From an uncultured Gemmatimonadales bacterium (lineage in GTDB: Bacteria > Gemmatimonadota > Gemmatimonadetes > Gemmatimonadales > GWC2-71-9), in NCBI GenBank assembly GCA_963828735.1, contig CAWHFW010000005.1, forward strand, positions 1,472,001 through 1,536,000: DNA of 64,000 nt, read 5' to 3'. The translations under genes were made by a program, and so were the position numbers. Below are positions 13,800-48,123 of the stretch, piece after piece; positions within the stretch are counted from its first letter, which is position 1; each line of letters starts with the position of its first letter. The notes beneath the pieces were generated by a model. The model ran no database searches and was not told the origin of the DNA. It was given only the letters and a program-made list of their open reading frames with translations.

Positions 13800-14015
13800 G
13801 TGCCGGGCATCTTCGTCAGCATGTGCGTCTGTCGCCATATGCCATTCGAGCGGCTGCTGCCGCTCGCACGCGCCGGTGGTTGGGGACTCGACGAGATCGC
13901 CCGCGCGACCGGGTGCGGCGCGGGCTGCGGCCTTTGCCGCCCCTACCTGCGGCGGATGCTGGCCACCGGCGAGACCGAATTCCACGAGCTGCTGGTCGAG
14001 GATCACGACGCGTGA
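13800..14015 (+). CDS. BFD-like [2Fe-2S]-binding protein
   Basis: CVC...GCGAGCGLC pattern in a 71-aa ORF; GTG start 2 nt after the SDR stop. Confidence 0.75.
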   Translation: MPGIFVSMCVCRHMPFERLLPLARAGGWGLDEIARATGCGAGCGLCRPYLRRMLATGETEFHELLVEDHDA

Positions 14016-14160
14016 GCCGGCCGATTCGAATCCGGCGCCTCCTCGGCCACGGCCGTCTTCCAGTTCAGCTCCCTACCGAACGCCCGGTCCGCCACGTTTC
14101 GGTCGGCGACGCGGAATGAAGCCCTTGAACACTCAGGGCCGCAGGTCCACCTTTCAGCCG

Positions 14161-14499
14161 ATGCCATTCGGCCGCCTTCTCCGGCTGTTCCTCCTGGCCC
14201 TCCCGCTCACGCTGGGCATGGCCAGAGGCGCGGAGCATTCCCGCCCCGCGGCGGCCGATCCGGTCTCCACCATCAGCGCTCCGCGGGAATCGCTCCCGCC
14301 GCCGGTCCACGACGAGGCGACCTGCGCCTTCTGCCAGGCCGCCATTTTCCCGCCCTGCGCCCCACAGCCGACGACCGTCTCGCTCGACGCGCTCGGCGTC
14401 GTTCGCCAGGAGTGCGCCGCGGCCGACGAGGCCACGCCGCACTTCACTACCCACCGCCTCACCACCACCCGGGCACCACCTACGCTCCGTTCGGCCTGA
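14161..14499 (+). CDS. RAPP-motif leader peptide 1 (DUF2946/CruR/CutF-like upstream ORF)
   Basis: Signal-peptide-like N-terminus (RLLRLFLLALPLTLGMARG), HDEATCAFC (CxxC) and C-terminal TRAPP; ends 48 nt upstream of tolC. Confidence 0.75.
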   Translation: MPFGRLLRLFLLALPLTLGMARGAEHSRPAAADPVSTISAPRESLPPPVHDEATCAFCQAAIFPPCAPQPTTVSLDALGVVRQECAAADEATPHFTTHRLTTTRAPPTLRSA

Positions 14500-14545
14500 C
14501 GCGCGCGCCCATTCCGGGCGCGCCACTCAACCGTACTCGGAGCGT
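14482..14545 (+). promoter_or_regulatory. Anti-SD/SD sequestering structure in front of tolC
   Basis: ACGCTCCG (14482-14489) is the exact reverse complement of CGGAGCGT (14538-14545), which contains the tolC SD; the two enclose the hairpin GCGCGCCC-ATTCC-GGGCGCGC (14503-14523). Confidence 0.65.
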
Positions 14546-14547
14546 CC

Positions 14548-15960
14548 ATGTCCGTCCGAATCCGGACGGTCGCCCTCCTTGCCTTCTGGCTGGGGGGGGC
14601 GACCGTCGCCAGAGCCCAGGTCCCCCGGGGTGCCACCGCTGATTCGGTGGCGCGAGGCCTGGGCCCGGCCGATTCGCTGGAGCTCACACTCAGGTCCGAC
14701 TGCGTGGGAGCGAACGCGGACACCACGACACCGGGATCCGCCGAGGTGCCCCGCGACCTGCTGTGCCTGACCCGCCAGCAAGCGATCGCTCAAGCGTTGG
14801 CCAAGAACCCCCAGCTCCAGGTGGCGGCTGAGCAGGTCGCCCAGGCGCACGCGCGAAAGGTCCAGGCCACTGCGATGCCTGACCCCCAGTTCGCCGCCGC
14901 CTTCGACCAATCGCAGGGCCTGTTCGGCGCCGGGGGCGCCAGCGAGCGGAGCCTCGCTGCGACCGTCACGATCCCGTTCATCGACAAGTTCCGACTGCAG
15001 GGCCGGGTCGGGACGGCGGACGTCCGCTCCGCCGACTTCTCCGCCGCACTGGTCCGGCAACAGCTCACCTCGGCGACTTCACAAACGTACGACTCGCTCC
15101 TCGCCTCGCTCCGCCGCGAGCGGGATCTGCGGGAGGCCAAGGCGCTGGCCCAGGACTTCGTGCGACGAGCGGAGGCGCGGTATAACGCCGGGACGACGCC
15201 GAAGCTCGACCTCGTGCGGGCGCAGGTGGAGCTGGCGCGGACCGAGAACGATCTCATCGGAAACGAGCGCGACGTGGCCAACGCGCGCGCGGCCCTCAAC
15301 CGGCTCGTCGGCCGTCCGCTCGGTGCCCCGATCGCCGCCGCCGATTCCCTGGGCGTGCCGCCGGCGCCGCCGGACCTCGACCGGCTCGTGGCCGCCGCCA
15401 TGGCCGCGCGGCCCGAGCTCGGGAGCCTGAAGAGTCAGGAGGCGGGCGCGCGCGCGGCCTCCGGACTGGCGCGGGAGTACTGGCTTCCCGATCTCACCGT
15501 CGGCATCAGCCATGATTACGCCGATCCCGGGCCAGGCTACATCTTCAGCGGCGTGTCGCTGCCGATCCCGCTCTTCTTCTGGAATCACTCGCGCGGAGAG
15601 ATCGCCGAGGCGCACCACCACGAGCTCGAGTTGGCAGCGGCGTACCAGGACCTCGAGCAGCAGGTGGGTCAGGACCTCCGCGCGGCCTATGCGGCCGCGG
15701 CCGCCGCCCTCCGCCAGGCCGTCTACATCCGCGACCAGATCCTCCCGCTCGCTCGCCAGGCCTACCACATCGCCTCCGTCAGCTATGGCCTCGGGGGCTC
15801 TTCGGCCCTGGACCTGCTGGACGCCCGGCGCAACCTGCTCGACGCGGAAAGCCAGTACACCGACGCGCTGGCGGCCGCCAACGATACCCGCGCGGAGCTC
15901 GAGCGCGCGGCCGCCACTCCGCTGGATTCGCTCGAGACCGGAGGCACCAATGACCGATAA
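14548..15960 (+). CDS. TolC/CzcC family outer-membrane efflux protein
   Basis: Signal peptide; ALAKNPQL, RYNAG...LDLVRAQV and Y.LG..S.LDLLDAR repeats. Confidence 0.9.
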   Translation: MSVRIRTVALLAFWLGGATVARAQVPRGATADSVARGLGPADSLELTLRSDCVGANADTTTPGSAEVPRDLLCLTRQQAIAQALAKNPQLQVAAEQVAQAHARKVQATAMPDPQFAAAFDQSQGLFGAGGASERSLAATVTIPFIDKFRLQGRVGTADVRSADFSAALVRQQLTSATSQTYDSLLASLRRERDLREAKALAQDFVRRAEARYNAGTTPKLDLVRAQVELARTENDLIGNERDVANARAALNRLVGRPLGAPIAAADSLGVPPAPPDLDRLVAAAMAARPELGSLKSQEAGARAASGLAREYWLPDLTVGISHDYADPGPGYIFSGVSLPIPLFFWNHSRGEIAEAHHHELELAAAYQDLEQQVGQDLRAAYAAAAAALRQAVYIRDQILPLARQAYHIASVSYGLGGSSALDLLDARRNLLDAESQYTDALAAANDTRAELERAAATPLDSLETGGTNDR

Positions 15961-17104
15961 GCCCGCGCTCGGCTCGGCCCTCATGCTGGTCGCGGCCACC
16001 GTCGCCGCGTGCAGCGGCGGCTCGCGCCGGAGCGATCCCGGCGACAGCACCACAACCTCAGCGGGCCAGGTCGGCACGGTCGAGCTCGACACCGCGCAAC
16101 GCTCGCGGATTCACGTAGAGAAGGTCGCGCCAGAGACCTACAGGGCCAGCGTCACCACCACCGGCACGGTGGCCTTCAACGGCGACCGATCCACCCAGGT
16201 GATCGCGCCCATCTCGGGCCCGGTCTCGCGGATCCTGGTGTCGCCTGGGGCCCGAGTGGAGCGCGGGCAGCCGCTCGCGATCGTGTCGTCGCCGGACTTC
16301 GCCGAGGCGGTCGCCTCCTACCGCAAGGCCGAGGGCGCGTGGCGGAACGCGTCGCGCATCGCCAGCCTGGACGAGCAGTTGTTCGCCAACGACGCGCTGG
16401 CCCGGAGCGACCTCGACCAGGCCCGGACCGACCTGGCCGCGGCCACGGCGGATCGGGAGGCGGCGCTGTCGCAGCTCCGATCGCTGGGTCTCGACGAGAC
16501 GGCAATCGACGCCATTCGCGATGGCAAGTCGGTCTCGGCGGGCGAGAGTGCCGTCCGCGCGCCGATCGCCGGCACGGTGGTCGAAAAGCTCGTTACGCCC
16601 GGCCAGCTCCTGCAGGCGGGCGCCACGCCGTGCTTCACCATCGCCGATCTCTCCACGGTGTGGGTCATGGCCAACGTGTTCGAGAGCGACCTCGGCGCGG
16701 TCCGGCGCGGAGAGGCGGCCCTGATCACGACCAACGCGGCTCCCGACACCCTGCCCGGCCAGGTGGACTACGTCGCCGATCTGGTGGATCCGTCCACCAA
16801 GGCCACCGCCGTCCGCGTACTCGTACCGAACAAGGCGCGGCTGCTGCGGCGGGACATGCTCGTGCGGGTGACGATCCGGGGCCTCACGCCGAGCACCGGC
16901 CTCCTGGTACCGGTCGCGGCGGTGCTGCGGGACGACGAGAATCTCCCATACGTCTATGTGGCGTCGCCGGGCGGCTTCGCACGCCGGCGGGTGGACCTGG
17001 GCGGTCGGGTCGGTGACCGGTACGAGATCGCATCGGGGCTCGAGCCCGGCGAATCGGTAGTGACCGACGGGGCGCTCTTTCTCGAAGGCGCGTCCACCCA
17101 GTGA
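15950..17104 (+). CDS. RND periplasmic adaptor (CzcB-like MFP), lipoprotein
   Basis: Lipobox VAAC; APISG.V and VRAPIAGTV hybrid motifs; IADLSTVWV.ANV.E; overlaps the tolC stop. Confidence 0.9.
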   Translation: MTDKPALGSALMLVAATVAACSGGSRRSDPGDSTTTSAGQVGTVELDTAQRSRIHVEKVAPETYRASVTTTGTVAFNGDRSTQVIAPISGPVSRILVSPGARVERGQPLAIVSSPDFAEAVASYRKAEGAWRNASRIASLDEQLFANDALARSDLDQARTDLAAATADREAALSQLRSLGLDETAIDAIRDGKSVSAGESAVRAPIAGTVVEKLVTPGQLLQAGATPCFTIADLSTVWVMANVFESDLGAVRRGEAALITTNAAPDTLPGQVDYVADLVDPSTKATAVRVLVPNKARLLRRDMLVRVTIRGLTPSTGLLVPVAAVLRDDENLPYVYVASPGGFARRRVDLGGRVGDRYEIASGLEPGESVVTDGALFLEGASTQ

Positions 17105-20100
17105 GCGACATGCCGGACGTGCCGAGCCCGTCCACCACTACGCGCCGATCCTTCATCCACCGTATCGTCGCGCTTGCGCTCGCCCAGCCGGCGGTGGTGA
17201 TCGCCGGCGCCGCCGCCGCAGCGGCGGCCGGCGTGTGGGCGTTCTCACAGCTTCCGATCGACGCCTATCCAGACCTGTCGTCGCCGACGGTCGAGATCAC
17301 GACACAGTGGCCGGGCCACGCCGCCGAGGAAGTGGAGCGGCTCCTCACCGTGCCGATCGAGACCGAGATGAACGGGCTGCCGGGCCTGGACGTTGTCCGC
17401 TCGATCTCGTTGTACGGGCTGTCCGACGTCCGGCTTGTGTTCAAAGACGGCACCGACAACTACTTCGCGCGCGAGCGGGTGTTCGAGAAGCTGCGCGACG
17501 TGGACGTTCCCGACGGCGTTTCGCCCGACGTGGCCCCGCTGTTCTCCCCCTCCGGCCTGGTGTACCGCTACGTCCTGCAGAGCCCCGACCGCTCCCCCAT
17601 GGAGCTCAAGACGATCCAGGACTGGGTGCTGTCGAAGGCCTACAAGGCCGTGCCCGGCGTCGCCGACCTGTCGGGGTTCGGGGGCCAGACGATGCAGTAC
17701 CAGGTCGTCCTCGATCCGACCCGGCTCGCCGGCGCGGGCCTCTCGGTTCCTGCGGTCGCCGAAGCGCTGGGCTCGAACAACGGCAACGCGGGTGGAGGAT
17801 TCTACTCCGAGGGTGGGCAGTTCTATTACGTGCGCGGCCTGGGGCGCCTCCAGGTGCCCGAAGACATCGGCAAGGTCGTCCTCGCCGTCAAGAATGGCAC
17901 GCCGATTCTCGTGCACGACGTCGGCCAGGTCGTCATCGGGTACGCACCTCGCCTCGGACAGTTCGGGTTCAACGACCAGCCAGACGCCGTCGAAGGCGTC
18001 GTGCTGATGCGCACCGGGGAGCAGGCGCAGACCGTGCTCAAGGGCGTCGAGGCCGAGACCGCGAGGCTCAACTCGACCGTGCTGCCCAAGGACGTGCGGG
18101 TCGTGCCGTTCTACGACCGGAGCGACTTGATCCGGCTGACCACGCGGACGGTCGAGGGAAACCTGCTCCGCGGGATCGTCCTGGTGATCGCCGTCCTCAT
18201 TTTCTTCCTGTTCGACTTCCGGGCGGGACTCATCGTCGCCGTGACGATTCCGCTGGCCCTGCTGATCGCGTTCATCTGCCTCGACCTGCGCGGTGTGCCT
18301 GCCAACCTGCTCTCCATCGGCGCCATCGATTTCGGGATCCTCGTGCATGGCGCCGTCGTGATGGTCGAGAACATCTACCGAAGTCTGGCTCGGCGATACG
18401 GAACCGTGTACTCCATCCGCGAGGTCATCGCGGAGGCGTCCGCGGAGGTGGACCGGCCGGTGGTCTACGCCATCGCGATCATCGTCGCGGGATTCCTTCC
18501 GATCTATACGCTCTCCGGGCCCGCGGGCCGGCTGTTTCGGCCCATGGCGGACACGACCATCTTCGCGCTCGCCGGCGCCCTGGCGATGACGCTGACGCTC
18601 GTCCCGGTGCTCTGCGCCGTGTTCCTCCGGGGTGGCGTGCACGAGCGGCGAAACGTCGTGTACGAAGCCGTGCTTTCGGCGTACGCTCGTGCCCTGGACC
18701 GCTGTCTCGCCTATCCTCGCGCCACCGTCCTCGCCTCGGTCGGGCTGTTCGCCGCGGCACTGCTGCTGACCAGCGGCATCGGTGCCGAGTTCATGCCCCA
18801 TCTCGACGAGGGCGCGCTCTGGGTCCGGGCGACCATGCCCGCGACCATCTCGCTCGAGGAGTCGTCCAAACTCGTGCCGCAGTTCCGCCGCATCCTCAAG
18901 AGCTTTCCCGAGGTCACGGTGGTCGCGTCCGAGCACGGGCGGCCGGACGACGGCACCAATCCCACCGGATTCTTCAATGCGGAGTTCTACGTCGGCCTCA
19001 AGCCCTACGGCGATTGGCACGGCCGCTTTCACAGCAAGCCCGAGCTCATCGACGCCATGAACCAGAAGCTCTCCGTCTTTCCCGGCGTGAGCTTCAACTA
19101 CACCCAGCCCGCGGAGGATGCCGTCGACGAGGCCGAGACCGGGCTCAAGAGCGCGTTGGCGGTGAAGGTATTCGGTCCGGACCTCCAGGTGCTGGAGGCC
19201 AAGGGGCGGGCGATCGAACGGGTGCTGCACCGGGTGCCCGGCATGAGCCGGATTACCGTGGTGGAAGAGCTGGGTCAGCCCAGTCTCACACTCACCATCG
19301 ATCGCGACCGGATCGCGCGCTATGGCATCAACGTGGCCGACGTGAACGCCCTGATCGAGGCGGCAGTCGGCGGCGTCGCCGCGACCTCGGTGGTGCAGGG
19401 CGAGAAGTCGTTCGACCTGGTGGTCCGGCTGGAGCCCCGGTTCCGGGAGACGCCGGAGCAGATCGGCGAGATCCTCGTCGCGGCCCCGGACGGGCAACAG
19501 ATTCCGCTCCGGGAGCTCGCGACCATCGGTGTAAACAGCGGCGCGTCGTTCATCTACCGCGAGGACAACTCGCGGTATATCGGCGTGCAGTTCGCCGTGG
19601 AGGGACGGGATCTCGCGGGCACCGTGCAGGAAGCGCAGCGCGAGGTCCGGGCGGCTGTGCCCCTGCCGCCGGGGTATCAGGTAGTCTGGGGTGGGGAGTA
19701 CGAGGAGTACACCGCGTCGCGGACCCAGCTCGCGGTGGTGCTGCCGCTCACGGTCGCGCTCATCTTCGTGCTGCTGTTCGCCCTCTACCGGAACTTCAGC
19801 TTTCCACTGATCACGGTGATCGGGGTGGTGCTTTCCGCTCCCGTCGGCGGATTCCTCGCCCTCGCCCTCACCGGGACTCCGTTCTCGGTGTCGTCCGGCA
19901 TCGGCTTCCTGGCGCTGTTCGGAGTGTCGGTGCAAACCGCGGTGGTGTACATCTCCCACGCCAACGAGCTTCGCCAAGGCGGTGTGGCCATCGCCACGGC
20001 CGTGCATGAAGCCGCGCTGAACCGGTTGCGGCCCATCATGATGACGGCGCTGGTCGCCGCTTTGGGACTGCTCCCGGCGGCCGTGTCCACCGGCGTCGGG

Positions 20101-20229
20101 TCCGACTCGCAGCGCCCGTTCGCGATGGTCATCGTAGGCGGGCTGTTCTCACGACTCCTCATCAGCGTGTTCCTGATGCCCGTGCTCTATGCGTACGTCG
20201 CCAGGGAGAATGACCGGCTGGAGGTGTGA
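17101..20229 (+). CDS. Heavy-metal efflux RND permease (CzcA/CusA family)
   Basis: LPIDAYPDL, NLLSIGAIDFG, F.PMA.T, P.LDEG, RLRPIMMTA and QRPFA.VIVGGL; 1042 aa. Confidence 0.95.
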   Translation: MSDMPDVPSPSTTTRRSFIHRIVALALAQPAVVIAGAAAAAAAGVWAFSQLPIDAYPDLSSPTVEITTQWPGHAAEEVERLLTVPIETEMNGLPGLDVVRSISLYGLSDVRLVFKDGTDNYFARERVFEKLRDVDVPDGVSPDVAPLFSPSGLVYRYVLQSPDRSPMELKTIQDWVLSKAYKAVPGVADLSGFGGQTMQYQVVLDPTRLAGAGLSVPAVAEALGSNNGNAGGGFYSEGGQFYYVRGLGRLQVPEDIGKVVLAVKNGTPILVHDVGQVVIGYAPRLGQFGFNDQPDAVEGVVLMRTGEQAQTVLKGVEAETARLNSTVLPKDVRVVPFYDRSDLIRLTTRTVEGNLLRGIVLVIAVLIFFLFDFRAGLIVAVTIPLALLIAFICLDLRGVPANLLSIGAIDFGILVHGAVVMVENIYRSLARRYGTVYSIREVIAEASAEVDRPVVYAIAIIVAGFLPIYTLSGPAGRLFRPMADTTIFALAGALAMTLTLVPVLCAVFLRGGVHERRNVVYEAVLSAYARALDRCLAYPRATVLASVGLFAAALLLTSGIGAEFMPHLDEGALWVRATMPATISLEESSKLVPQFRRILKSFPEVTVVASEHGRPDDGTNPTGFFNAEFYVGLKPYGDWHGRFHSKPELIDAMNQKLSVFPGVSFNYTQPAEDAVDEAETGLKSALAVKVFGPDLQVLEAKGRAIERVLHRVPGMSRITVVEELGQPSLTLTIDRDRIARYGINVADVNALIEAAVGGVAATSVVQGEKSFDLVVRLEPRFRETPEQIGEILVAAPDGQQIPLRELATIGVNSGASFIYREDNSRYIGVQFAVEGRDLAGTVQEAQREVRAAVPLPPGYQVVWGGEYEEYTASRTQLAVVLPLTVALIFVLLFALYRNFSFPLITVIGVVLSAPVGGFLALALTGTPFSVSSGIGFLALFGVSVQTAVVYISHANELRQGGVAIATAVHEAALNRLRPIMMTALVAALGLLPAAVSTGVGSDSQRPFAMVIVGGLFSRLLISVFLMPVLYAYVARENDRLEV

Positions 20230-20296
20230 GCCCTGTGCTCTTCGCCTGGAATTACCTAGACCGTCACTACGCGCGCGTGGCTGGAGCCGTTTGACC

Positions 20297-20626
20297 GTGC
20301 TCGCCCGGGTCCGCGCCTGGCTCCTTCTCGCGCTCTTCCTGGGCGCGGGCACCAGCCTGCCGAGCGCGGACGCGCTGCTGCACCACCAGCATCCCGAGCC
20401 GTTCCGGGTGCACTACGACCCGGCCGGCGGGTGCGCCGAGCACGCGGATCACTGCACGCTGGGCCGCACGCCGCCGGGCTCGAGGGCGGTGGCGCCGGTC
20501 ATGCTCGTGGTCCGTGTCGGACCGAACAAGCCGTCGCATGCCATCCGCACCCCGTCCGCGCAACTGTTCGATGCGCGGACCTCCTTCCTCCCTCCGTCCC
20601 GAGCTCCTCCGGCGCCGCCGATCTGA
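20297..20626 (+). CDS. RAPP-motif leader peptide 2 (DUF2946-like upstream ORF)
   Basis: GGAG RBS (alternative TTG start at 20291); hydrophobic N-terminus RVRAWLLLALFLGAG; HHQH, CAEHADHC and C-terminal PPSRAPPAPPI; lies upstream of a TonB-dependent receptor. Confidence 0.75.
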   Translation: MLARVRAWLLLALFLGAGTSLPSADALLHHQHPEPFRVHYDPAGGCAEHADHCTLGRTPPGSRAVAPVMLVVRVGPNKPSHAIRTPSAQLFDARTSFLPPSRAPPAPPI

Positions 20627-20704
20627 CGGGACCTCCCGTCCGAACATCGCGGCTCCCCGGGCGCACCCATGCGCCGGGGTCATGCTCCCTGAACCGGAGG
20701 CTCG
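20600..20704 (+). promoter_or_regulatory. Anti-SD/SD sequestering structure in front of the TonB-dependent receptor
   Basis: CGAG(CT)CCTCCGG (20600-20612, the RAPP codons) pairs with CCGGAGGCTCG (20694-20704, containing the SD); internal hairpins at 20625-20640 and 20655-20679. Confidence 0.65.
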
Positions 20705-20705
20705 A

Positions 20706-22979
20706 ATGGTTACGCTGCTTCTGGCGGCGGCGCTTGCCGTCGCCGCGGGTCCGTCGCGGGCGGCGGCGCCCGCGCCTGCCGCCGTGCTCACCGGCACCGT
20801 CACCGACAGCGCCGGCGCCCCACTGGCCGACGTCCGAGTGCACGTGCCCGAGCTTGGGCGCGGAACGACCACCGACGCCGAGGGCAGGTTCACGCTGCCC
20901 CAAGTGCCGTCGGGCACCTACGAGGTTGCCTTCTCCCGCATCGGCTATGCTCCGCTCGTCCACCGAGTCACCGTCGGCGTTCAGCCCGTGATCCTCGCGG
21001 TGTCGATGCACTCCTCGGCCGTCGAGCTGCCGGAGGTGCAGGTGACGGCCACCCCGAATGCCACCACCGCGCTCACATCTCCCCAGCCGATCAGCATCCT
21101 CGATCATGACAACCTGCGGGTCGCGCAGGCGCCGTCGCTCGGCGAGACGATCAGCGGACTCGCCGGCGTCCACAGCATCAACCAAGGCCCGGCGATCGGG
21201 AAACCGGTCATCCGGGGCCTCAGCTCGAGCCGCGTCCTCGTGCTCGACAACGGCCAGCGCATCGAGACGCAGGGCTGGGGTGACGAGCACTCGCCCAACA
21301 TCGAGACGGCCGACGCCGAGCGGATCGAGGTCATCCGGGGGCCGGCGAGCGTGCTGTACGGCTCAGACGCGCTCGGTGGCGTGGTCAACGTGGTGAAACG
21401 CGACCTGCCGGACGCGATCGGGCGAGACCCGCTCTTCCGCGGCGCGCTTTCGGTCGCGTACAGCACGAACAACCAGCAACCCGAGGGGACCGCGCAGGTC
21501 GATGGGGCCACGGGCGGGCTCGGCTTCCGGGCGTCGGTCACCGGCAGGATGAGCGACGATTTCACCACCCCGGTAGGCGACGTGTTCAACACCGGCAACA
21601 GCGCGGTGGCCGGGAACGGCTCGGTGGGCTACCGCGGGAGCTGGGGGTCGGTGCGTGGTGACTTCGTGTACCGCGACGAGAAGCCGGAGCTTCACGACGA
21701 CGCAACAGCGACGCCATTCCAGCGCATCGGCGACACTCGCGCCGGAATCAGCGCCAACCTCCCGATCGGCCAGTCTCGCCTCGAGGTGATCACGGGGTTC
21801 GAGCGAAACCGCCGGCGGGAGTTCGAGGAGGCCGGCTCCGAGGAGGTGGCGTCTGGCCTGCTCGCCAGCAGCTTCAAGGCCGACGCCCGGTTCCATCACG
21901 AGCCCCTCGGCCGGCTCACCGGCCTCGTGGGCCTGCAGGCCTTCTTCGACGACTTCACCGTGTCCGGGGTGGACCAGCACCTGATCCCGAGCAATCAGGC
22001 ACGGAACGTCGGAGTTTACGCCTTCGAGCAGCTCGACATCGACCGCTGGACGCTCTCGTTCGGAGCTCGCTACGACTACCGCCGGCTGGACGTTACCGCG
22101 GACCCGCCACCGCCGATCGGCACGGGAACGCCCGCGCAGGCCCGCACGTACAGCTCAGTGGTCGGCAATTTCGGCGCGCTATTTCACGTGAGCGAGCCCG
22201 TCGCGCTGGTGGTCAACGTCGGACGCGGCTTTCGGGCACCGCAGCCGATCGAGCTGTTCGCCAACGGTGTGCACGAAGGGACGATCCAGTACAGCGTCGG
22301 GAACCCGGAGCTCGAGAACGAGACGTCGATCAACACCGACTTCGCTGTCCGGGTCCAGAGCGAGAGGGTGAGCGCCGAGCTCGGTGCGTTCGGTAACTTC
22401 ATCAACAACTACATCTACTTCCGGCCGACCGGGACGTATGACTCACCCTCGGGCGGGTTGGAAGATCCGTGCTCGAATCCCGACACGTTCTCCTGCTTCC
22501 AGAAGTTCCAGGCGGTTCAGGGCGACGCCCGCCTCGCCGGCTTCGAGTTCTCGGCCGAGTACCACCCGACGCCGTACCTGCACCTAAGCGGTACGGCGGA
22601 CTACACCCGCGGCCAGAACCGCTCCGTCGACCAGCCGCTCCCGCTGGTGCCGCCGTTCCGCGCGACCTACGGCGCGCGGTTCGAGGGCAAGGGCAACCGC
22701 ACCTTCCTGAATCCCTATGTGTCGGTGAGTGGCGAGACCAACGCGCAGCAGACGAAGCTCGATCCCGACGACTTCGCGCCTCCCGGATACACGCTGGCCA
22801 ACGCTGGCGCGGGAGTCGGACTGACCGCGGGCGCTCGGGTAGTCAATATCGACGTGACTCTCCGGAATGTATTCGACAAGGAGTACCAGACCTTCCTGAG
22901 CCGCTACAAGTTCGCGACGGATCCCATCGTCCTGGATCCGGGCCGTAACCTGACGATGCGCATCAGCACGGATTTCTGA
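20706..22979 (+). CDS. TonB-dependent receptor with N-terminal carboxypeptidase-regulatory-like domain (probable metal uptake)
   Basis: GGAGG RBS; signal peptide; plug motifs KPVIRG and ERIEVIRGPASVLYGSDALGGVVN; QGWGDEH and NGVHEG; ends in PGRN...F. Confidence 0.93.
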   Translation: MVTLLLAAALAVAAGPSRAAAPAPAAVLTGTVTDSAGAPLADVRVHVPELGRGTTTDAEGRFTLPQVPSGTYEVAFSRIGYAPLVHRVTVGVQPVILAVSMHSSAVELPEVQVTATPNATTALTSPQPISILDHDNLRVAQAPSLGETISGLAGVHSINQGPAIGKPVIRGLSSSRVLVLDNGQRIETQGWGDEHSPNIETADAERIEVIRGPASVLYGSDALGGVVNVVKRDLPDAIGRDPLFRGALSVAYSTNNQQPEGTAQVDGATGGLGFRASVTGRMSDDFTTPVGDVFNTGNSAVAGNGSVGYRGSWGSVRGDFVYRDEKPELHDDATATPFQRIGDTRAGISANLPIGQSRLEVITGFERNRRREFEEAGSEEVASGLLASSFKADARFHHEPLGRLTGLVGLQAFFDDFTVSGVDQHLIPSNQARNVGVYAFEQLDIDRWTLSFGARYDYRRLDVTADPPPPIGTGTPAQARTYSSVVGNFGALFHVSEPVALVVNVGRGFRAPQPIELFANGVHEGTIQYSVGNPELENETSINTDFAVRVQSERVSAELGAFGNFINNYIYFRPTGTYDSPSGGLEDPCSNPDTFSCFQKFQAVQGDARLAGFEFSAEYHPTPYLHLSGTADYTRGQNRSVDQPLPLVPPFRATYGARFEGKGNRTFLNPYVSVSGETNAQQTKLDPDDFAPPGYTLANAGAGVGLTAGARVVNIDVTLRNVFDKEYQTFLSRYKFATDPIVLDPGRNLTMRISTDF

Positions 22980-23045
22980 CGTGCCTTGCTTCATCGCGCG
23001 ACGTGGCCGAGCCGCACGACTTGAGGGCCGCTGTCCGCCTTGCCG

Positions 23046-24572
23046 TCAGCGGACCTTCTTCCAGCCGGGCAGGTAGGGCGGCACCAGCAGCGCAGTCCGC
23101 CGCAGCAGCTCGAGGTGGGACGCGACGATGTCCGCGAGCTGCTGCGCCGCGCAGAGATGTGCCTCGCGGAGGATGGCCGGAGGCTTCGCGGTGAGAACCA
23201 GCGCACCGTGGATGCGCCCGGCCACTCGAAGCGGCACGAGGAGGCGCGCTTCGTCCTCCACGAGCTGGAACGAGTTGGGCAGCTCGCCCAGAAGCACACG
23301 GGCCAGCGTCGTTCCCCCGACCGGAATCAGGGGCAGATCCGGCAGAGGCCGGCGCTCGCCGGGCTCCAGGAGCACCACGCGATCGCCCTCGCTCAGCCGG
23401 ATCGCGAAACGCATGTCGTCGAACGGCAGGATGCGCGCCGCCAGGTCCGCCACCCGGCGCGTCGTGTCGGCGAATTCGGTTCCGGTCGCGAGCATCTGCG
23501 CGGCGTCGAGGAGGCTCGGACCCGGAGGCGAAGACGCGACCGGCGGCTGAGCCGGTGACGCGGCCCCGACCAGCATCGTCACTTGCGCCGCGATCAGCCC
23601 ACCGACGCGTCGAAGCAACTCGGCGTCGACCTCACTGTACAGATCCGCGCCGATGCCGCCGGCGAGGAGATAGGCAACCAGCCCGCCCAGCCCGCAAACC
23701 CGCGTGCCCACCACGGCGCGGAGCTCCGCGCCGACCGGCTCCTCCACGGTGAAGTAGCCTCGAGGCCAGTGGGGATCCTGGTAGCTGTCCGCGATGACCA
23801 CCGTCTCGCGATCACCGAACAGCGCGGCGAGATCGAGGTGTTCGCGTCCGATGACGAGGGATGGGTCGGACCAGAGTGCCCCCGCCGAGTGCTCGCCCAG
23901 CCGGTAGGCGCGCGTCCCATTCGCGTCCGCCAGCAGAAGCTCGAGGTGATCGTGCGGCAGCACCTGGTCCAGCGCCCGCCCGAGCTCCGTGAGATAGAGC
24001 TGCGGCGAGCCGGCGTGCGCGCCGGCGTAGGCCACCGCGTCCACGAGCGCCGCGATGCGCGTCGCCTCAGGCGCGTGATCGGGCGAGGCACTCCACTGTC
24101 TCGCCATCCGCCCGAGCATCGGCGCGAGCCGCTGCGCGGCGACGTCGAGCAGGAGTCGCTCCTCCTCGCCGTACTGCTCAGGCCGCAGGTCCGCCGCGAG
24201 AACGAGCCCGACGTCGCGCCGGCCGGACCGAACCGGCGCGCACGCCACCGAGCCGTAGCCGGCCTCCCGCACGACGTCTTCCAGCAGCCCGACCTGCGAG
24301 CGCTCGAGCTGCGGGGTCGGCAGCGGAACCGAGAGGTCGTCCTGAGCCAGCGCCTCCGGGCCGAGCAGCACCGCGCCGCCGTGCAGCGGATAGAGCCAGA
24401 CTCCGAGCAGATCGTGCGGGAGGTCGGGGGCGAGCGCGTTTGAGAGCGCAGAGTGCCAGGTGGCGAGCGCGTCGGGATCGGCCAAGCCCTGCTCGGCCCG
24501 CAGCAGGGGCACGAGCGGTTCGCCCCTGGGTGCGGGGTCTGGATGGCGAGGACTTGGTGGATCCGGGGACAT
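23046..24572 (-). CDS. Hypothetical protein with tandem GAF-like domains
   Basis: Three internal segments beginning LPHDLLG, LPHDHLE and LPFDDMR; LLVPLRVAGRIHGALVL is GAF-like; no output domain recognised. Confidence 0.6.
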   Translation of the reverse strand: MSPDPPSPRHPDPAPRGEPLVPLLRAEQGLADPDALATWHSALSNALAPDLPHDLLGVWLYPLHGGAVLLGPEALAQDDLSVPLPTPQLERSQVGLLEDVVREAGYGSVACAPVRSGRRDVGLVLAADLRPEQYGEEERLLLDVAAQRLAPMLGRMARQWSASPDHAPEATRIAALVDAVAYAGAHAGSPQLYLTELGRALDQVLPHDHLELLLADANGTRAYRLGEHSAGALWSDPSLVIGREHLDLAALFGDRETVVIADSYQDPHWPRGYFTVEEPVGAELRAVVGTRVCGLGGLVAYLLAGGIGADLYSEVDAELLRRVGGLIAAQVTMLVGAASPAQPPVASSPPGPSLLDAAQMLATGTEFADTTRRVADLAARILPFDDMRFAIRLSEGDRVVLLEPGERRPLPDLPLIPVGGTTLARVLLGELPNSFQLVEDEARLLVPLRVAGRIHGALVLTAKPPAILREAHLCAAQQLADIVASHLELLRRTALLVPPYLPGWKKVR

Positions 24573-24821: not shown

Positions 24822-25031
24822 ATGCGACATCTCACCCTCCATATCGAAGGCATGAGCTGCGGCCATTGCCTCAACGCGGTCAATCGAGCGCTCGCAGGGC
24901 TGCCTGGCATCGAGATCGAATCGGTCACCATCGGGCGGGCAAACTTGCGCTACGACGAGCGCACCATGGACTCCGAGCGCATCGAAGCCGCGGTCACCGA
25001 AGCGGGATATCGGGCCACGGGCGTGTCATGA
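24822..25031 (+). CDS. copZ: Copper chaperone (HMA domain)
   Basis: 69 aa; IEGMSCGHC and I..AVTEAGY. Confidence 0.9.
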
Positions 25032-25411
25032 CCACCGCGCAGCTCGCCGTCACGTTGTTGGGCCTCGCGGCCATCGCGTGGGTCAACTGGTACTTCTTCA
25101 TCGCCGGTCGTCGCGCGGTGACGGCAGACGTCGAGCGCGGCGGAGCCCAGCGCGTGCGCATCGAGGTGAAGGGCGGCTACACCCCCGCGGTAATTCGCGT
25201 CCGTGCCGGCTCTCCCGTCCGCCTCGATTTCCACCGCGACGAGACCAATCCCTGTACCGAGGAGGTCGTCCTTCCGGCCTTCGGAATTCGCACGTTTCTC
25301 CCGGCCCATCGAACCACGTCGGTGAGCTTCACGCCCGGCGAGGGGAAGTTCGAGTTCGCGTGCGGCATGGGCATGGTGCGAGGGACTATCGTCGCGGAGA
25401 AGGTCGAGTAG
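25028..25411 (+). CDS. Membrane-anchored cupredoxin-domain protein (CupA-like)
   Basis: ATGA overlap; one N-terminal TM helix ending WYFF; GGYTP..I, CTEEV and FACGMGM. Confidence 0.85.
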
Positions 25412-25413
25412 AC

Positions 25414-27681
25414 ATGTCGGACGCCCTGACCGCTTCGACCGATTCCTGCACCATCCCGGTCACCGGGATGACCTGCGCCGCGTGCAGCAGCCGGGTGCAG
25501 CGGACGCTCGAGCGCACGGACGGAGTTTCGTCGGCCAACGTCAACCTCATGACCGGCGCGGCGACGGTCGCCTACGATCCGTCGGTAACATCGCCCGAGC
25601 GCCTGGTCGACACCATTCGCGGTACCGGGTACGGGGCGCAATTGCCGCTGCCGAACGAGTCGAGCGAGGCGCTCCTGGACGCCCAGGACGCCGCGCGCGC
25701 CGAGGAGGTGCGCGATCTGCGCGGCAAGTTCGCGCTCGGCGCGACGGTCGGCCTCGGCATCATGGCGCTCGCCATGACGCCCACCGGCTCGGGCGATATC
25801 GGCCGCTATGCCGCGCTGGCGCTCACGCTGCCGGTGGTCGGCTGGGCGGGACGGCATTTCTACACGCGCGCGTGGGGCGCCTTCCGGCACCACGGCGCCG
25901 ACATGAACACGCTGATCGCTGTCGGCACCGGAACCGCGTTCGTCTTCAGCGCCGTCGTGACGGTGTTCGACGACTGGTTCGCCGCCCACGGGGTCGAGCC
26001 GCACGTGTACTTCGAGGCGGTGGTGTGGATCATCGCGCTCGTGCTGCTCGGGAACCTGCTCGAGGCCCGGGCGAAGGGTCAGACGTCCGGCGCCATCCGT
26101 CGGCTCATCGGCCTGCGTCCGGCGACGGCACGTGTGCTTCGCGACGGGCGAGAGGAGGACGTGCCGCTCGCGACGCTTCGAGTCGGCGACGAGGTGCTGG
26201 TCCGCCCCGGCGAGACTGTGCCCGCCGACGGCACCATCGTCGACGGCGCGAGCAACCTGGACGAGAGCATGCTCACCGGCGAGCCGATGCCGGTGCCGAA
26301 GCGAGTCGGCGACCGGGTGATCGGAGCCACGCTCAACCGGAACGGAGCGTTCCGGTTCCGCGCCGAGCGGGTGGGGAACGCGACCGTGCTTTCGCGGATC
26401 ATCCGTCTCGTGCAACAGGCGCAGGGCAGCAAGGCGCCGATCCAGCGGCTGGCCGATCGCATCTCGGCGGTGTTCGTCCCCGTGGTGCTGTCGATCGCGA
26501 TCCTGACGTTCGTCGTCTGGTTCGACCTTGGGCCCGCGCCGGCCTACTTGCACGCCCTCGTGTCCGCCGTGACCGTGCTCATCATTGCCTGCCCCTGCGC
26601 CATGGGGCTTGCCGTCCCGACGGCGGTGATGGTCGGAACGGGACGCGGCGCCGAGCTCGGGGTGCTCATCAAGGGCGGCGAGCCGCTCGAGCGGAGCCAT
26701 GCCCTCGACACGATCGTCTTCGACAAGACGGGGACGATCACCGAGGGCCATCCCGCGGTACAGGCGGTCGAGCTCGCCCCCGGTAGTGGCGTCGCGAGCG
26801 AGGCGGACCTCCTCGAGCTCGCCGCGGCGGTCGAGCGGCTCAGCGAACATCCGCTGGCCGACGCGATCGTCGCGGAGGCCGAGCAGAGGGAACGGGCCGC
26901 GGGTCGCGCGACCGACTTCGAGAGCCGCACGGGCAAGGGCGTGCTCGGGACGGTGGCCGGGCGCCGGCTCGCAGTCGGCAACCTCGCCCTCATGAGTGAT
27001 CTCGGCGTCGAGGTGGGTGCTCTCGCGGCTCGAGCCGAGGCATTGGCCACGCTGGGATGGACTCCAGTGTACGTTGCCGTGGATGGCGCACTGGCCGGCA
27101 TCGTCGCGATCGCGGACCCGGTGAAACCCACCAGCGGGAAAGCCATCGCCGAGCTGCGTCGCCTTGGCCTCGAGTCGATCATGCTCACCGGCGACAGCCT
27201 TCGGACGGCGGAGAGCGTCGCGCGGAGCGTCGGAATCACGCGCGTGCTCGCCGAAGTGGCGCCGGACCGGAAGCTGGATGAGATCGGTCGCCTGCAGGCG
27301 GAAGGCCGCGTGGTCGCCATGGTGGGCGACGGCCTCAACGACGCGCCCGCCCTCGCGCGTGCCGACGTGGGCATCGCGATGGGCACCGGCACCGACGTGG
27401 CCATCGAGGCCGGCGCGGTCACGCTGATGCGCGGCGACCCGCTCGGCGTCGTGACCGCCATCCGCCTGGCCCGGACGGTCATGCGAGTCGTCAAGCAGAA
27501 CCTGTTTTGGGCGTTCGTCTACAACGTGATCGGCATTCCGGTGGCGGCGGGCGTTCTGTATCCGGCGTTCGGTCTCCGCCTCACGCCGGCGATGGCCGCG
27601 GCCGCCATGGCCGTGAGCTCGGTGAGCGTCGTGTCCAACAGCCTGCGGCTTCGCCGCTTCACGCCCGGAGGTGCGTCATGA
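25414..27681 (+). CDS. copA: Cu(I)-exporting P1B-1 ATPase
   Basis: GMTCAAC, TGE, CPC, DKTGT, SEHP, GDGLND, YN and MAVSS. Confidence 0.95.
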
Positions 27682-28013
27682 GTCTGCCCGTCGCCCCTTG
27701 CGCTTGTGGCCGTCCCGGGGATGGGACCCATGCCGTGGCGGTGGATCCCGAGATCAAGCGCGCGGTGCTCACTCGGCTCCGGCGCATCGAAGGCCAGGTG
27801 CGCGGCCTGCAGAAGATGGTCGAGGAGGAGCGGTACTGCGCGGACGTACTCATGCAGGTGTCGTCGGCGCAGGAGGCGCTCCGGGGTGTGAGCCGCTCGC
27901 TCCTGCACAATCACCTGAAGCATTGCGCCGCCGAGGCGATCCGCTCGGAGGATCCCGCGCAGTCGGAGGCGATGTACGAGGAGCTGCTGGACCTCGTGTT
28001 CCGGGCGCGGTAA
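27678..28013 (+). CDS. csoR: Copper-sensing repressor, CsoR family
   Basis: [25 protein letters not shown] and H.KHC ligands; ATGA overlap with copA. Confidence 0.92.
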
Positions 28014-28033: not shown

Positions 28034-29521
28034 CTACACCGCGCCCACCCGCCGCATGTCCCGCTCCACCGTCCGCACCGCTCCCACCACCGTGACCCCG
28101 CCGACGATCACGACAAACGGCAGCAACAGGACCGCTCGGTCGAGCCCGAACCGGTCGCTCAGGGTCCCGACCAGCGGCAGGGCGATCGCGTCGCCGGCGA
28201 GGTGGATGAACAGGAGATACGCGCCCGCCACCGTCGCACTGATCCGGGGTGGGACCACGTCGAAGATCACCGCCGTCATCGGCCCGTTGTACCACGAGAG
28301 ACAGAAGAACGCGACCGCGAAGACCGCCTGAAACAGGTCGGGATCCCGGATGGTGAGCAGCCAGAGCGCCAGAGGCCCTCCGAGGAGCAGGCCGAGCGCG
28401 ACGACGAGGACGCGCGCCGTCTCGAAACGACGCCGCAGCCAGTCCGCCAGAATGCCGCCGAAGAGCGTGCCCGCCGTTCCCGCGATCAGCCCCCACTTCC
28501 CGAGTAACGCTGCCGCTGCCGCCGCGCTCAGCCCAAGCTCCCGCGAGACGAACGTCGGCCCCCAGCCGACGATGCCGTTGAGTCCGAACGAGATCATGGC
28601 GCCGGCCGCGAAGATGTACACCAGGGTGGGCGTGTGCAGCACGGTGCGGCCCGCGCGCACGATGTCGGCGAACGCGCCCTCGATGCCGCCGATGGCCGCC
28701 TCCTCGGCCTGATCGCCGGGCGTCCGGCGCACCCAGCGCAGGATGGTGGCGGCGAGACCCAGGCCGACCGCTCCGCTGAACACGGCCAGGTCCATCTTCG
28801 AGTCGGCGCCGTAGGCCCGGTCCGCCCAGATCGCGGCGACCCCGCCGACGCCGATCCCCGCAAGCAGCGGCCAGAGGTGCCGGAACAGCGGCATCGCTCC
28901 GATCTCGAAATCGCGGAGGAAGGAGCGCACCGTGAGGCGCTCCGGGGCACGCACGGGGTCTTGGAGGCGGGAGACGAGCACGGCGAGGATGAACCCCGGC
29001 ACGCCTACGGTCATGAACGCAACGCGCCAGCCGTACGCGCCCGCGAGATGGCCGCCGAGGAGCAGCCCGATCACGCCGCCGAGCGCGATGCCCGAGGAGA
29101 GAATCCCCATCGCCACCGCGCGGCCGCGGCCCGGGAAGAAATCCGCCACCAGCGACGATGCCGCCGGCCCATAGGCCGCCTCTCCCACGCCGACCAGCGC
29201 CCGGCAGGTGAAGAGGTGCCCGAACGTCTTGACCAGGCCGCTCAGGAAGGTGAAGGCGCTCCACACCGTCACGCCACCCGCGATCACCGCCCGCCGGGAG
29301 CGCAGATCGCTGAGCACTCCGAACGGCAGCGCCGCGACCGAGAAGACGAAGATGTAGGCGGAGCCGAGCCAGCCGAGCTGCGAGTCGCTCAGCGCGAGGT
29401 CACGCTTGATCGGCTCGAACAGCGCGAAGATGACGTTGCGGTCGATGTAGTTGAGGAGATTGATGAGGGCGAGCAACCCGAGGGCGTACCATTTGTACGC
29501 TCGCGACGGTGGCGCGGTCAC
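28034..29521 (-). CDS. MFS transporter (spinster-like)
   Basis: [23 protein letters not shown] and G.LSDRFG. Confidence 0.88.
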
Positions 29522-30693
29522 CGCCGCGCCACCGTCTCGGCTCCCCCGGCACCCGGATGCAGGTGGGACAGCGACTCCTCCGCCCGCTCGTCCCGGAACG
29601 CGAGTGCCGCCCGATACTCCTGGATCAGGCGGTTCATCATCGCCTCTCGACGGCCATACAGCCGCTTGAGCGGGCGGGCCGCACGCTTCTCCCTGGCGTA
29701 GGCCGTGAGCAGTGGAAGTGCGATCGAGTTGTCGCTGTACACCACGACGGTGCCGGGCAGCTGGTCCGGATCGATCTTCCCCCAGCTCACCGCTTCGGCC
29801 GGCGTCGCGCCCGAGAGGCCGCCCGTGTCGGGGCGCGCGTCAGTCATCTGCAGGAAGTAGTCGTGGCCCCGCTCGTCGATGCCCAGGACCTCCTGAATCT
29901 GCGGCTCGGTCTGCAGCATGAAGTTTTTGGGACTCCCACCGCCCACGATCAGCACTCCGCTCTTGCCGCCGGTGCGCTTCGCCTCGAGGACGATGCTGGC
30001 CGTCTCGTTGACGTCCGCGCTCACGTCGAACCGGAGCTGGCTGCCGGCCAGCGCCTGCTCGGCCACGTTCATCCCGATCGAGCTGTCGCCCGGCGAGCTG
30101 GTGTAGAGCGGCACCTCGAGCTCGTGCGCGGCGGCCAGCACCGAGCGCCGGCTCAGGCCGAGCGCCTGTTCCCGCTCGCGCACGTAGCCGCCGAGTAGGT
30201 AGTGGTATTCCGCGGTGCTCATCGCGCGCTGGAACTCCTGGCGGGCCGAGACCTCGCGGATGAACTTGTCCGTCGAGAGCAGCACGTTGTAATCGAAGAA
30301 GATGTCGTAGATCCGGACCACGCCCTTGTCCCGGAGCTCGACGTCGTCCGCGTTGGGCGTCCCGCGGTGCATCGCCAGGCCGAGCGCGAAGTGTGCGTCG
30401 TGGTAGAGATTCGCGCCGGTCGAGATCACCCAGTCGACGAATCCCGACTCCATGAGCGGGATGAGGCAGCTCATGCCGATCCCCGCGGGCGTCATGGCGC
30501 CCGTGAGCGTCATTCCCACCGTGGTGTCGGGCTCCAGCATGCGCTGGGTGAAGAGCTGGCACCCCTCTCGCAGCCGGCCCGCGTTGTACGCGAGGAAGGC
30601 GTTATCGATCAGCGCGGCCACGGTTTCCTTGCCGGAGATCGCGGTCGGCTCGATGCGCTGGCCCCGCAGATATTGGGCTGACGGTCTGGTCAT
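29518..30693 (-). CDS. Deoxyhypusine synthase-like protein (SpeY/homospermidine biosynthesis type)
   Basis: [27 protein letters not shown] and [17 protein letters not shown]. Confidence 0.88.
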
Positions 30694-44994: not shown

Positions 44995-45417
44995 TCAACT
45001 CTTGTGGGAATCCTCGGTTCCCAAACCCATTTCCCCGTGGTCCATCTTGACCTCGCCGGTCACCTTGGCCCCTTCGACGATGGCGATCCGCGGGGTATGG
45101 ATGTCCCCCGCGACGACGGCGGTCGCTTGGAGTTCCACCCGCTCGCGAGCCACGATGGCCCCACTCACCTGGCCGGCAACGACCGCCTCCTGGGTGTGGA
45201 GGTCGCCTTCGATGACGGCGCCTGCCGCCACCAGCACCTGCGCGGCGGCCCGGACGGTTCCGCGGACTCGACCCTCGACCCGCACGACGCCCTCGGTCTC
45301 GAGATCGCCGATCACCGTCATGTCACTCGCGATAATCGAGAAGGGTATTTGGTCGGTGCGGCGGCGGCGAAGCTCGTTCCCCTGTTCGTCCCGCGCCGGG
45401 TTGTTGAAGATCCCCAT
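44995..45417 (-). CDS. Bactofilin (polymer-forming cytoskeletal protein)
   Basis: SII...M.V.GDL...G.VRVEG.V.G repeats and V.GDI.TP.I.I.EGA...G. Confidence 0.92.
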   Translation of the reverse strand: MGIFNNPARDEQGNELRRRRTDQIPFSIIASDMTVIGDLETEGVVRVEGRVRGTVRAAAQVLVAAGAVIEGDLHTQEAVVAGQVSGAIVARERVELQATAVVAGDIHTPRIAIVEGAKVTGEVKMDHGEMGLGTEDSHKS

Positions 45418-47916: not shown

Positions 47917-48053
47917 GAAGGGCTGCTGACCTATAAGATGCTGTTGATAAACGACTTACACGATTTGGCGAGTTGGCTGCCAGGTGGGGGATTCACGATC
48001 GGCGCCAACGGTGACAATATAGGACGGCAGCGGTCAGATGCCAACGCCGGGAG

Positions 48054-48069
48054 CGTTTCACGTGAAACA
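48054..48069. promoter_or_regulatory. parS: parS centromere site 1
   Basis: CGTTTCACGTGAAACA matches the TGTTTCACGTGAAACA consensus at 15 of 16 positions. Confidence 0.92.
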
Positions 48070-48100
48070 AAGCGCCTCAGGGAGGCGCCGGTTTGCCTCT

Positions 48101-48116
48101 CGTTTCACGTGAAACC
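48101..48116. promoter_or_regulatory. parS: parS centromere site 2
   Basis: CGTTTCACGTGAAACC has a perfect 14-bp palindromic core. Confidence 0.9.
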
Positions 48117-48123
48117 GGTGGTA

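Follow-up and report, generated by a model that had tools for sequence, protein, structure and literature searches.

Ribosome arrest on leader peptides

Several bacterial genes are controlled by the arrest of ribosomes on a short leader peptide. In peptides of the SecM type, the stall exposes the Shine-Dalgarno (SD) sequence (PMC10987492). CruR (Bp2923; DUF2946, PF11162), the leader of cruR-bfrG-bp2921 in Bordetella pertussis (PMC9426467), is arrested by default and released by metal (PMC9426467), the arrest itself being demonstrated in PMC12992588, whereas CutF, the leader of cutFOG in Rhodobacter capsulatus, works in reverse, Cu inducing the stall (PMC9973294; bioRxiv 10.1101/2025.02.05.636593); non-copper members of the CutF group have been predicted (PMC9973294). 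Upstream open reading frames (uORFs) carrying RAPP or RGPP are widespread before TonB-dependent receptors in Gram-negative bacteria, nearly all of them with a signal sequence, and metal sensing has been proposed for the members containing Cys and His (PMC12992588). The authors of the CruR study noted that neither Cu nor Zn has a known riboswitch, a gap that may be filled by leaders acting through a protein (PMC9426467). Here we analyze leader 2, a short open reading frame (ORF) preceding a TonB-dependent receptor gene in a 64,000-nucleotide stretch of DNA (hereafter the window) from an uncultured Gemmatimonadales bacterium (contig CAWHFW010000005.1).

Leader 2 is a real, conserved candidate for a translational switch, for which zinc as the metal and shut-off as the response are likely. 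The reading that we favor, with moderate confidence, is that of a conserved RAPP arrest leader, the stalling of which opens the ribosome-binding site (RBS) of the receptor gene, the arrest being released by zinc. Like CruR, leader 2 is a small, probably exported uORF with a C-terminal RAPP, a TonB-dependent receptor downstream, a stretch in which C exceeds G, and a probable shut-off of uptake by metal. The distance from C90 to R139 in CruR is 48 (45 after the CXXC, as computed from PMC9426467), and that from C55 to the Arg of RAPP in leader 2 (residues being counted from TTG 20291) is also 48, as it is in leader 1, another leader located upstream in the window. Leader 2 differs from CruR in the absence of CXXC, the second Cys being replaced, mostly by Gly, in its Asp/His/His/His/Cys (D/H/H/H/C) core and in its ZnuD-type receptor; Rho termination has been shown for CruR (PMC9426467), whereas the leader 2 family has a covarying anti-SD on the stall codons. 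PF11162 (gathering threshold 23.7 bits) gave no hit on leader 2 at E ≤ 1 and only weak hits on its relatives (best E 0.042 in 6 of 111 and 0.001 in 27 of 125), and a search of the genome with this model did not retrieve the leader 2 locus; in the ESM Atlas, the neighbor of leader 2 at 0.96 carries DUF2946 on 11% of its members.

With CutF, leader 2 shares a probable export signal, a His/Cys site, a putative Pro-rich C-terminal stall, a predicted stem-loop masking the SD and an intergenic region of less than 100 nt. With its 109-111 aa, Pro-Pro 4-5 residues from the end and a gap of 79 nt before the receptor gene, it falls within the rules used for CutF-like proteins (less than 150 aa, Pro-Pro in the last 15 residues, a Cys/His site, and a same-strand gene within 1000 nt), and a stem-loop over the downstream SD is indicated by the predicted fold and by covariation. 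According to the CutF papers cited above, however, CutF has CxxxC and PPP, its Cu-induced stall turns on a detoxifying oxidase and its stem is placed in the intergenic region, whereas leader 2 has a true RAPP, an importer as its target and an anti-SD lying within the coding stall codons. In SecM, ApdA, ApdP, and uDF_RQH, a RAPP-like arrest likewise disrupts an SD-sequestering stem and turns on the next gene (PMC7897499, PMC10987492); as described there, these peptides differ from leader 2 in that they monitor Sec or YidC, precede sec or yidC genes and have no conserved set of metal ligands. Among the 126 loci of the leader 2 family described below, none of the 122 with a classified downstream gene has a sec or yidC gene there.

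In its proposed mode of action leader 2 resembles CruR and CutF, but it does not reach the cut-off of DUF2946: the kind is known and the variant is new. Our literature search, which covered few subscription papers, yielded no paper showing a zinc-responsive arrest leader, and the available text of PMC12992588 contains no occurrence of zinc, ZnuD, ZnuA, Gemmati-, stem-loop or Shine-. Members of the family could be present among the 5,334 CutF-like proteins or in other supplementary lists of those papers, and may be included in the source data of PMC12992588. The family provides a testable candidate for a zinc-responsive arrest in which the ligands, the site of the stall and the stem are all specified.

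Complementarity of the RAPP codons to the SD of the receptor gene

The RAPP codons of leader 2, CGA GCT CCT CCG, occupy positions 20600-20611, inside the ORF. An earlier interpretation made from the letters of the window alone (the sequence-only reading) had claimed that these codons and the next G pair with positions 20694-20704, and this was borne out: the minimum free energy (MFE) and centroid structures alike pair 20600-20604 with 20700-20704 and 20607-20612 with 20694-20699, giving 11 bp with a 2-nt bulge and pair probabilities of 0.60-1.00. The native codons rank fourth among the 384 synonymous codings of RAPP by duplex energy (-19.1 kcal/mol; usage-weighted P 0.006), the strongest duplex found in 22 ordinary gene pairs of the genome being -12.6. 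Taken as a whole, the 161-nt region has a folding z-score of just -1.9, and 7 of 200 shuffles fold as well. The Rfam covariance models gave no match at leader 2 and a single chance-level match elsewhere in 13800-23200.

The further claim that one sequence codes both the peptide motif and the RNA switch was supported for the receptor-associated subfamily but not for the porin leaders defined below or for leader 1, where the anti-SD comes after RAPP. In all 20 close porin leaders, it is located in the codons after RAPP, and these leaders show a clear consensus structure. The conserved principle is an anti-SD lying under the stalled ribosome, RAPP itself being one placement of it.

Codon constraint and covariation

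The profile of leader 2 gave 159 hits in the fetched DNA, of which 126 were retained after the removal of 25 exact duplicates, 3 loci cut by contig ends, 4 without a start and 1 without a terminal RAPP. Three of these were set aside for a wrong start or the lack of a true RAPP and 4 for an unclassified downstream gene. The 119 loci analyzed comprise 73 heading a TonB-dependent receptor (45 close, with at least 100 bits, and 28 distant), 38 heading a porin-like protein (20 close, 18 distant), and 8 heading the outer-membrane factor of a resistance-nodulation-division (RND) system. The receptor class includes several receptors only about 30% identical to that of the window, and some were classed from short fragments.

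Synonymous-codon conservation of RAPP, which had been proposed along with the pairing as a check on it, was indeed observed. CCT encodes the first Pro in 41 of the 45 close receptor leaders, GCT the Ala in 27 and CGA the Arg in 33, the genome frequencies of these codons being 3.8, 3.0, and 6.4%, respectively. CCT accounts for 8.3% of the first Pro codons in Pro-Pro pairs and for 8.6% of the other Pro codons in the same leaders, and CTCC occurs in none of 22 control gene ends (equivalent 15 nt). A natural control is provided by the close leaders in which a second anti-SD, scored blind to the RAPP codons, lies behind RAPP: CCT is present in 16 of these 30 leaders, as compared with 35 of the 35 having no second anti-SD. 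In one small clade (L012, L040, and L072), CCT has been lost and the pairing, or potential pairing, goes through the tail.

Since rare-codon use alone could give rise to a codon bias, covariation with the non-coding arm was examined. Between the wobble base of the second Pro codon and the base 5' of GGAG, the 60 loci compared show G:C in 23 cases, A:U in 10, C:G in 1 and G:U-type pairs in 4, while 22 are unpaired; the 34 Watson-Crick pairs compare with 20.2 ± 3.1 in shuffles. A quick maximum-likelihood tree, built from 56 of these loci, puts A:U at 3 or more separate positions and C:G at one. When the helix of the window was counted on the alignment of the 45 close receptor leaders, 73.1% of the cells were paired vs. 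26.7-48.4% in slid controls, a comparison that favors this helix because the structure was named from the window's own sequence. Two-sided changes numbered 18 as against 8.0 in shuffled data, and concern the first base of the Arg codon, its wobble base and the wobble base of the second Pro codon. This covariation is evidence that one codon pair has been selected both as peptide and as RNA.

Modeled effect of a stalled ribosome

The stalled ribosome was modeled by blocking all the RNA located 5' of P-site +15, with both Pro codons in the P and A sites, the placement of these codons being taken from PMC12992588 and the toeprint distance from PMC7897499. The opening energy of the SD-AUG region of the window decreased from 14.3 to 9.5 kcal/mol when the ribosome was in place. 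The median decrease was 3.6 in the close receptor leaders (n = 45), 4.7 in the distant receptor leaders, 8.8 in the close porin leaders (n = 20), 3.9 in the distant porin leaders, and 3.5 in the efflux leaders, vs. 0.4 in 22 ordinary gene pairs. The median opening energy of these ordinary pairs was 9.0, so that the blocked state resembles an ordinary RBS. The probability of the SD being paired was tried as a measure of switching (50 of 119 loci) and replaced by the opening energy, since it says little in RNA this rich in GC, remaining at 0.96 when the ribosome is in place.

Family members and conserved residues

A protein search yielded 111 sequences, including the window's own record, and those having an organism name all belong to Gemmatimonadales. 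The leader 2 profile search gave 324 clusters at 50%, and matches were present in 64 of 401 genomes of the phylum, 56 of them in the family to which the window belongs, represented by 166 genomes; G221, which is among the 64, is unpublished and was used in this count alone. Downstream of the leader, 122 of the 126 loci carry a TonB-dependent receptor, a porin-ZnuAB module or RND efflux genes, the other 4 being unclassified.

Of 125 sequences, most of which share 23-46% identity with the query, D27 is conserved in 125, H32 in 123, H41 in 116, H51 in 124, and C55 in 124, and RAPP is conserved as well (R104 in 124, A105 in 114, P106 in 125, P107 in 124). The distance from C55 to the Arg is 48 in 97 and 47 in 23 of 123 sequences. 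C48 (74/125) and H54 (54/125) are mainly subfamily features, and H31 (11/125), H34 (15/125), and Y42 (15/125) are not conserved. The residue at C55 +3 is Gly, Ala, Ser, or Arg, so that CXXC is absent, and the close subfamily has C-x6-C. The ligand set proposed in the sequence-only reading (HHQH, HYD, and CAEHADHC) is present in full in leader 2, but HHQH and HYD are not conserved in the family and C48 and H54 only partly; as H31 and H34 vary while D27, H32, H41, H51, and C55 are kept, the putative ligand motif of the family, as read from the alignment, is D-x4-H, H, H-x3-C rather than HHQH.

The view that these ligands differ from the CxxC of leader 1 was upheld by the alignments of both families. 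Leader 1 is a member of a conserved family of its own (224 hits), marked by an invariant HxEATCxFCQAAxF, and has its anti-SD in the codons directly following RAPP (z -6.0). Profile comparison of the two families aligned the RAPP end alone (probability 39%) and gives no support for homology beyond the motif and its spacing. Searches of both leaders against Pfam and NCBIfam gave no match. When the genome was scanned for RAPP ends accompanied by Cys or His, 30 of 721 candidates passed a loose filter; most were off-frame noise, and leaders 1 and 2 alone looked real.

Several genomes carry 2-3 copies of leader 2 (L114-L123), located 2.7-6 kb apart, each of which heads a receptor, porin-ZnuAB or RND module. 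One receptor orthologue (L011) stands behind a leader of the CxxC...RSPP type, and three others (L013, L014, and L018) lack a leader. RND operons orthologous to that of the window are headed elsewhere by leader-2-type peptides instead of leader 1.

The receptor and the choice of metal

The best PDB sequence match of the receptor is ZnuD (E 3e-29; next match 7e-15; OprC 4e-14), and ZnuD occupies ranks 1-4 in Foldseek (5e-37), OprC ranking lower (2e-30). The identity with ZnuD of Neisseria meningitidis (PDB 4RDR) is about 19-21%, the receptor has an extra N-terminal carboxypeptidase-regulatory-like domain, and the NCBIfam ZnuD model (NF038289) gives 135.6 bits, far below its cut-off of 950. The high-affinity zinc site of ZnuD consists of D99, H100, E340, and H499 (PMC4557270), which align with E194, H195, E374, and H523 of the receptor (numbering offset of 14 residues), that is, with its WGDEH and GVHEG motifs plus one barrel Glu. 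These two His motifs, to which the sequence-only reading had drawn attention, are present and map onto the zinc site, and they are conserved: in 36 receptors, H195 is found in 35 and H523 in 36. E374 is found in 29 and E372 in 36, and the third position of the site could be the invariant E372 instead of E374.

In the porin class, a binding protein of the ZnuA family and an ABC-3 permease follow in all 22 loci for which the downstream DNA extends over 2.5 kb or more. The gene directly upstream of the close receptor leaders is that of ZnuB (ABC-3 permease) in 19 of 45 cases and czcA in 9, including the window. AztC and AztB are among the best NCBIfam hits of the binding protein and permease, below the cut-off, AztC being the best for the binding protein, the best PDB hits of which are YfeA (Fe/Mn). 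Alignments of the binding protein show His-His-His-Glu at the expected site positions, a pattern that we take to be of the zinc type. Zinc, rather than Ni, Co, or Cu, is our best reading of these sequence comparisons. The original proposal of Zn, Ni, or Co rather than Cu is thus narrowed to Zn by the ZnuD-type receptor and the ZnuAB neighbors, nothing having been found that points to Ni or Co, and the metal-uptake setting that it assumed agrees with the porin-ZnuA-ZnuB operons present behind sister leaders.

In the annotated loci (L059:1631-4984, L114:4617-7877, L122, and L123), the operons encoding a porin-like protein, a ZnuA-like protein and an ABC-3 permease lack an ATPase gene, both within the run of these genes and immediately next to it. 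The porin-like protein (460 aa) has no match in Pfam or NCBIfam; in the ESM Atlas, it comes closest to a "putative porin" cluster, 33% of whose members carry BBP2.

Proposed mechanism and transcription

The ribosome would arrest on the RAPP codons, which are complementary to the receptor RBS, and the arrest would free this RBS, allowing translation of the predicted zinc importer. Binding of zinc to the D/H/H/H/C site, which is probably exported, would end the arrest, possibly through co-translational folding or pulling, so that the hairpin closes. The arrest with Pro codons in the P and A sites is taken from published RAPP peptides and not from this locus (PMC12992588). We infer the export, the metal binding, the identity of the metal as zinc, and the off-when-replete sign. 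Since an importer lies downstream, the economical reading is that of CruR, in which the arrest is the default and metal releases it.

Leaders standing first in their operon look leaderless at the transcript level, judging from their upstream regions: a -10-like TANNNT precedes a start by 5-8 nt in 56 of the 77, several candidate starts being allowed per leader, but in just 2 of 37 leaders internal to an operon and in 68 of 1189 genes of the genome. Upstream of leader 1, the window reads TTGAAC-17-CACCTT-7-ATG (14125-14163). Inspection by eye of the DNA preceding the first-in-operon leaders showed no Zur-like operator, no motif search having been run; the genome carries 2 Fur-family genes. It is conceivable, although we consider it doubtful, that Gemmatimonadales run their zinc regulon from the ribosome rather than from a DNA-binding repressor, by means of a D/H/H/H/C arrest peptide whose AUG opens a leaderless transcript and copies of which would gate a ZnuD-type receptor, porin-ZnuAB and an RND pump through an anti-SD sliding within the ribosome footprint. 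If true, a single ligand core would serve importers and exporters alike, in what would be the first nascent-peptide switch that senses zinc.

Alternative explanations

A number of observations weigh against a zinc-released arrest at leader 2. As regards the RNA, RNAalifold found no consensus pairs for the close receptor leaders (n = 45), good conservation of the helix is limited to its 6-bp core and the G11 pair (the outer half is poor, and the column 14 pair is present in 7 of 45), and the association between CCT and the second anti-SD is absent in the distant members (4/14 vs. 18/40, p 0.35). Near-identical strains were kept in the locus set and the loci are related, so the p-values are overstated. 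CGA encodes the Arg in 18 of 20 porin leaders, where it has no SD-side partner, so that rare-codon use or ancestry explains part of the codon bias. With the modeled ribosome, the SD of the window is still 96% paired, refolding with the coding start, the opening energy drops by less than 2 kcal/mol in 12 of the 45 close receptor leaders, and the ordinary pairs used as controls form a small set. No promoter match was found in a scan of 13800-23200, leader 2 standing behind an efflux operon. As regards the metal, no ZnuA is encoded in this genome (97.5% complete), and three signs are contrary: a copper cluster lies 2-5 kb downstream of the receptor, one member (L119) heads a receptor operon ending in CopC/CopD, and the leader-free receptor orthologue of L013 is divergent from a DtxR/MntR-family gene. 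Lastly, CruR and CutF respond in opposite directions, and 8 loci carry largely the same ligand core and spacing at the head of RND efflux operons orthologous to that of the window (CzcA 67-80% identical), which means that the ligands do not reveal the sign. Sharing their ligands, the leaders linked to importers and those linked to exporters form natural pairs for asking what determines the direction of the switch.

It is unlikely, though well worth considering, that the same switch serves another metal or has the opposite sign, with Cu as in CruR, with Mn, Fe, Ni, or Co, or with a CutF-like stall turning on the receptor along with the RND pump. The three contrary signs just mentioned fit this view, as do the position of leader 2 behind a CzcCBA-like operon, the match of the binding protein with YfeA, the 8 efflux-linked members and the finding that CutF-like leaders with His only precede Ni/Co HupE/UreJ genes (PMC9973294). 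Against it, the receptor is nearer to ZnuD than to OprC both in sequence and in Foldseek, with the four site positions kept, the CXXC that CruR needs for Cu is absent from leader 2, and the binding protein has AztC as its best NCBIfam hit, although below the cut-off, and His-His-His-Glu at the site positions. Leader 2 might also monitor protein export, like SecM or ApdP, or just couple translation, its His and Cys being structural and no metal being sensed. RAPP peptides are known as Sec/YidC monitors (PMC7897499, PMC10987492), all three downstream classes are envelope proteins and the AlphaFold model has no folded metal domain, but each of five potential ligands occurs in 93-100% of the 125 mostly divergent sequences, at a fixed distance from RAPP, and the three classified downstream classes are all transport systems of metal-related families; we regard this possibility as quite improbable.

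Control mainly by Rho-dependent termination, with the anti-SD stem being secondary or merely making untranslated RNA for Rho, seems improbable to us. CruR is controlled in this way (PMC9426467), and leader 2 has a similar C-over-G bubble; the C content is raised by Pro-rich coding alone, however, the intergenic region measures 79 nt vs. 162 for cruR-bfrG, and SD pairing itself is under selection, as the compensatory changes and the relocation of the anti-SD inside the ribosome footprint show. It is very improbable that the complementarity is a by-product, the Pro-Pro CCNCC resembling an anti-SD in GC-rich genomes and rare codons being kept only to slow the ribosome. The enrichment of CGA where it is partnerless, the persistence of CCT in 10 of 20 porin leaders and the modest z-score of the whole region are in line with it, and protein-neutral synonymous changes left Apc/Apd arrest unaffected, codon identity having no proven role in that system (PMC7897499). 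Against it stand the covariation with a non-coding arm, the relaxation of CCT exactly where a second anti-SD exists, and the lack of CTCC in the control gene ends.

Organization of the locus

The features of the locus are listed in Table 1. The protein on record for leader 2 has 109 aa, in agreement with GTG 20297, which is a likelier start than TTG 20291. The peptide consists, in order, of a basic-hydrophobic N-terminus, DALLHHQH, HYD, CAEHADHC, and a C-terminal RAPPAPPI. The AlphaFold model shows a single N-terminal helix (residues 3-33, after basic residues) and no metal-site fold (predicted template modeling score 0.33). Inverted repeats similar to the two inner hairpins are visible in an alignment of relatives. 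Leader 2 starts 67 nt after czcA, the last gene of the RND operon, with a probable SD of its own; terminators in 13800-23200 were only at chance level. Four soil RNA runs (of 5, shares 0.05-0.07) yielded short contigs, mostly from relatives, and no listed piece spans leader 2 and the receptor gene.

Table 1. Features of the leader 2 locus, in window coordinates.
Feature	Position	Strand	Basis or remarks
Leader 1	14161..14499	+	HxEATCxFC...RAPP; first Cys to RAPP = 48; anti-SD in codons after RAPP
TolC-like/CusB-like/CzcA-like heavy-metal RND operon	14548..20229	+	TIGR00914, 893.9 bits (cut-off 701.45)
GGAG, probable SD of leader 2	20283..20286	+	Sequence; 10 nt 5' of GTG 20297
Leader 2 ORF	20297..20626	+	109 aa from GTG 20297 (111 aa from TTG 20291); stop 20624-20626
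Hydrophobic N-terminal segment W10-T21, probable export signal or anchor	20318..20353	+	Kyte-Doolittle 11-residue means up to 2.35
Putative metal-binding region	20369..20455	+	D27, H32, H41, H51, C55 (family core); C48, H54 (mainly close subfamily)
C-rich, G-poor stretch resembling the rut bubble of CruR	20531..20670	+	C 38 vs. G 16 in 78 nt; compare PMC9426467
RAPP codons and next G, arrest motif and anti-SD arm	20600..20612	+	Sequence, fold, codon constraint, covariation
Two inner hairpins bringing the arms together	20614-20653 (holds the stop codon), 20655-20679	+	Predicted fold
SD arm of the receptor gene	20694..20704	+	CCGGAGGCTCG; GGAGG at 20696-20700
TonB-dependent receptor, 757 aa, ZnuD-like	20706..22979	+	Pfam; ATG at 20706

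The CzcA-like pump of the window has a His in the motif DFGILV-H-GA (18346-18348), where 5 other copies have an Asp and that of L027 also has a His; this Asp is presumably a proton-relay residue. The copper cluster located downstream of the receptor gene (24822-28013) encodes an HMA chaperone, a cupredoxin-like protein, a P1B ATPase and a CsoR-family repressor, and a small gene with a multicopper-oxidase domain is present near the start of the window (1468-2448). On the minus strand, the window also carries a deoxyhypusine synthase-family gene (29518-30693), a gidA-parA-parB-M23-bactofilin run (44995-49200), and a suf cluster (51027-56275).

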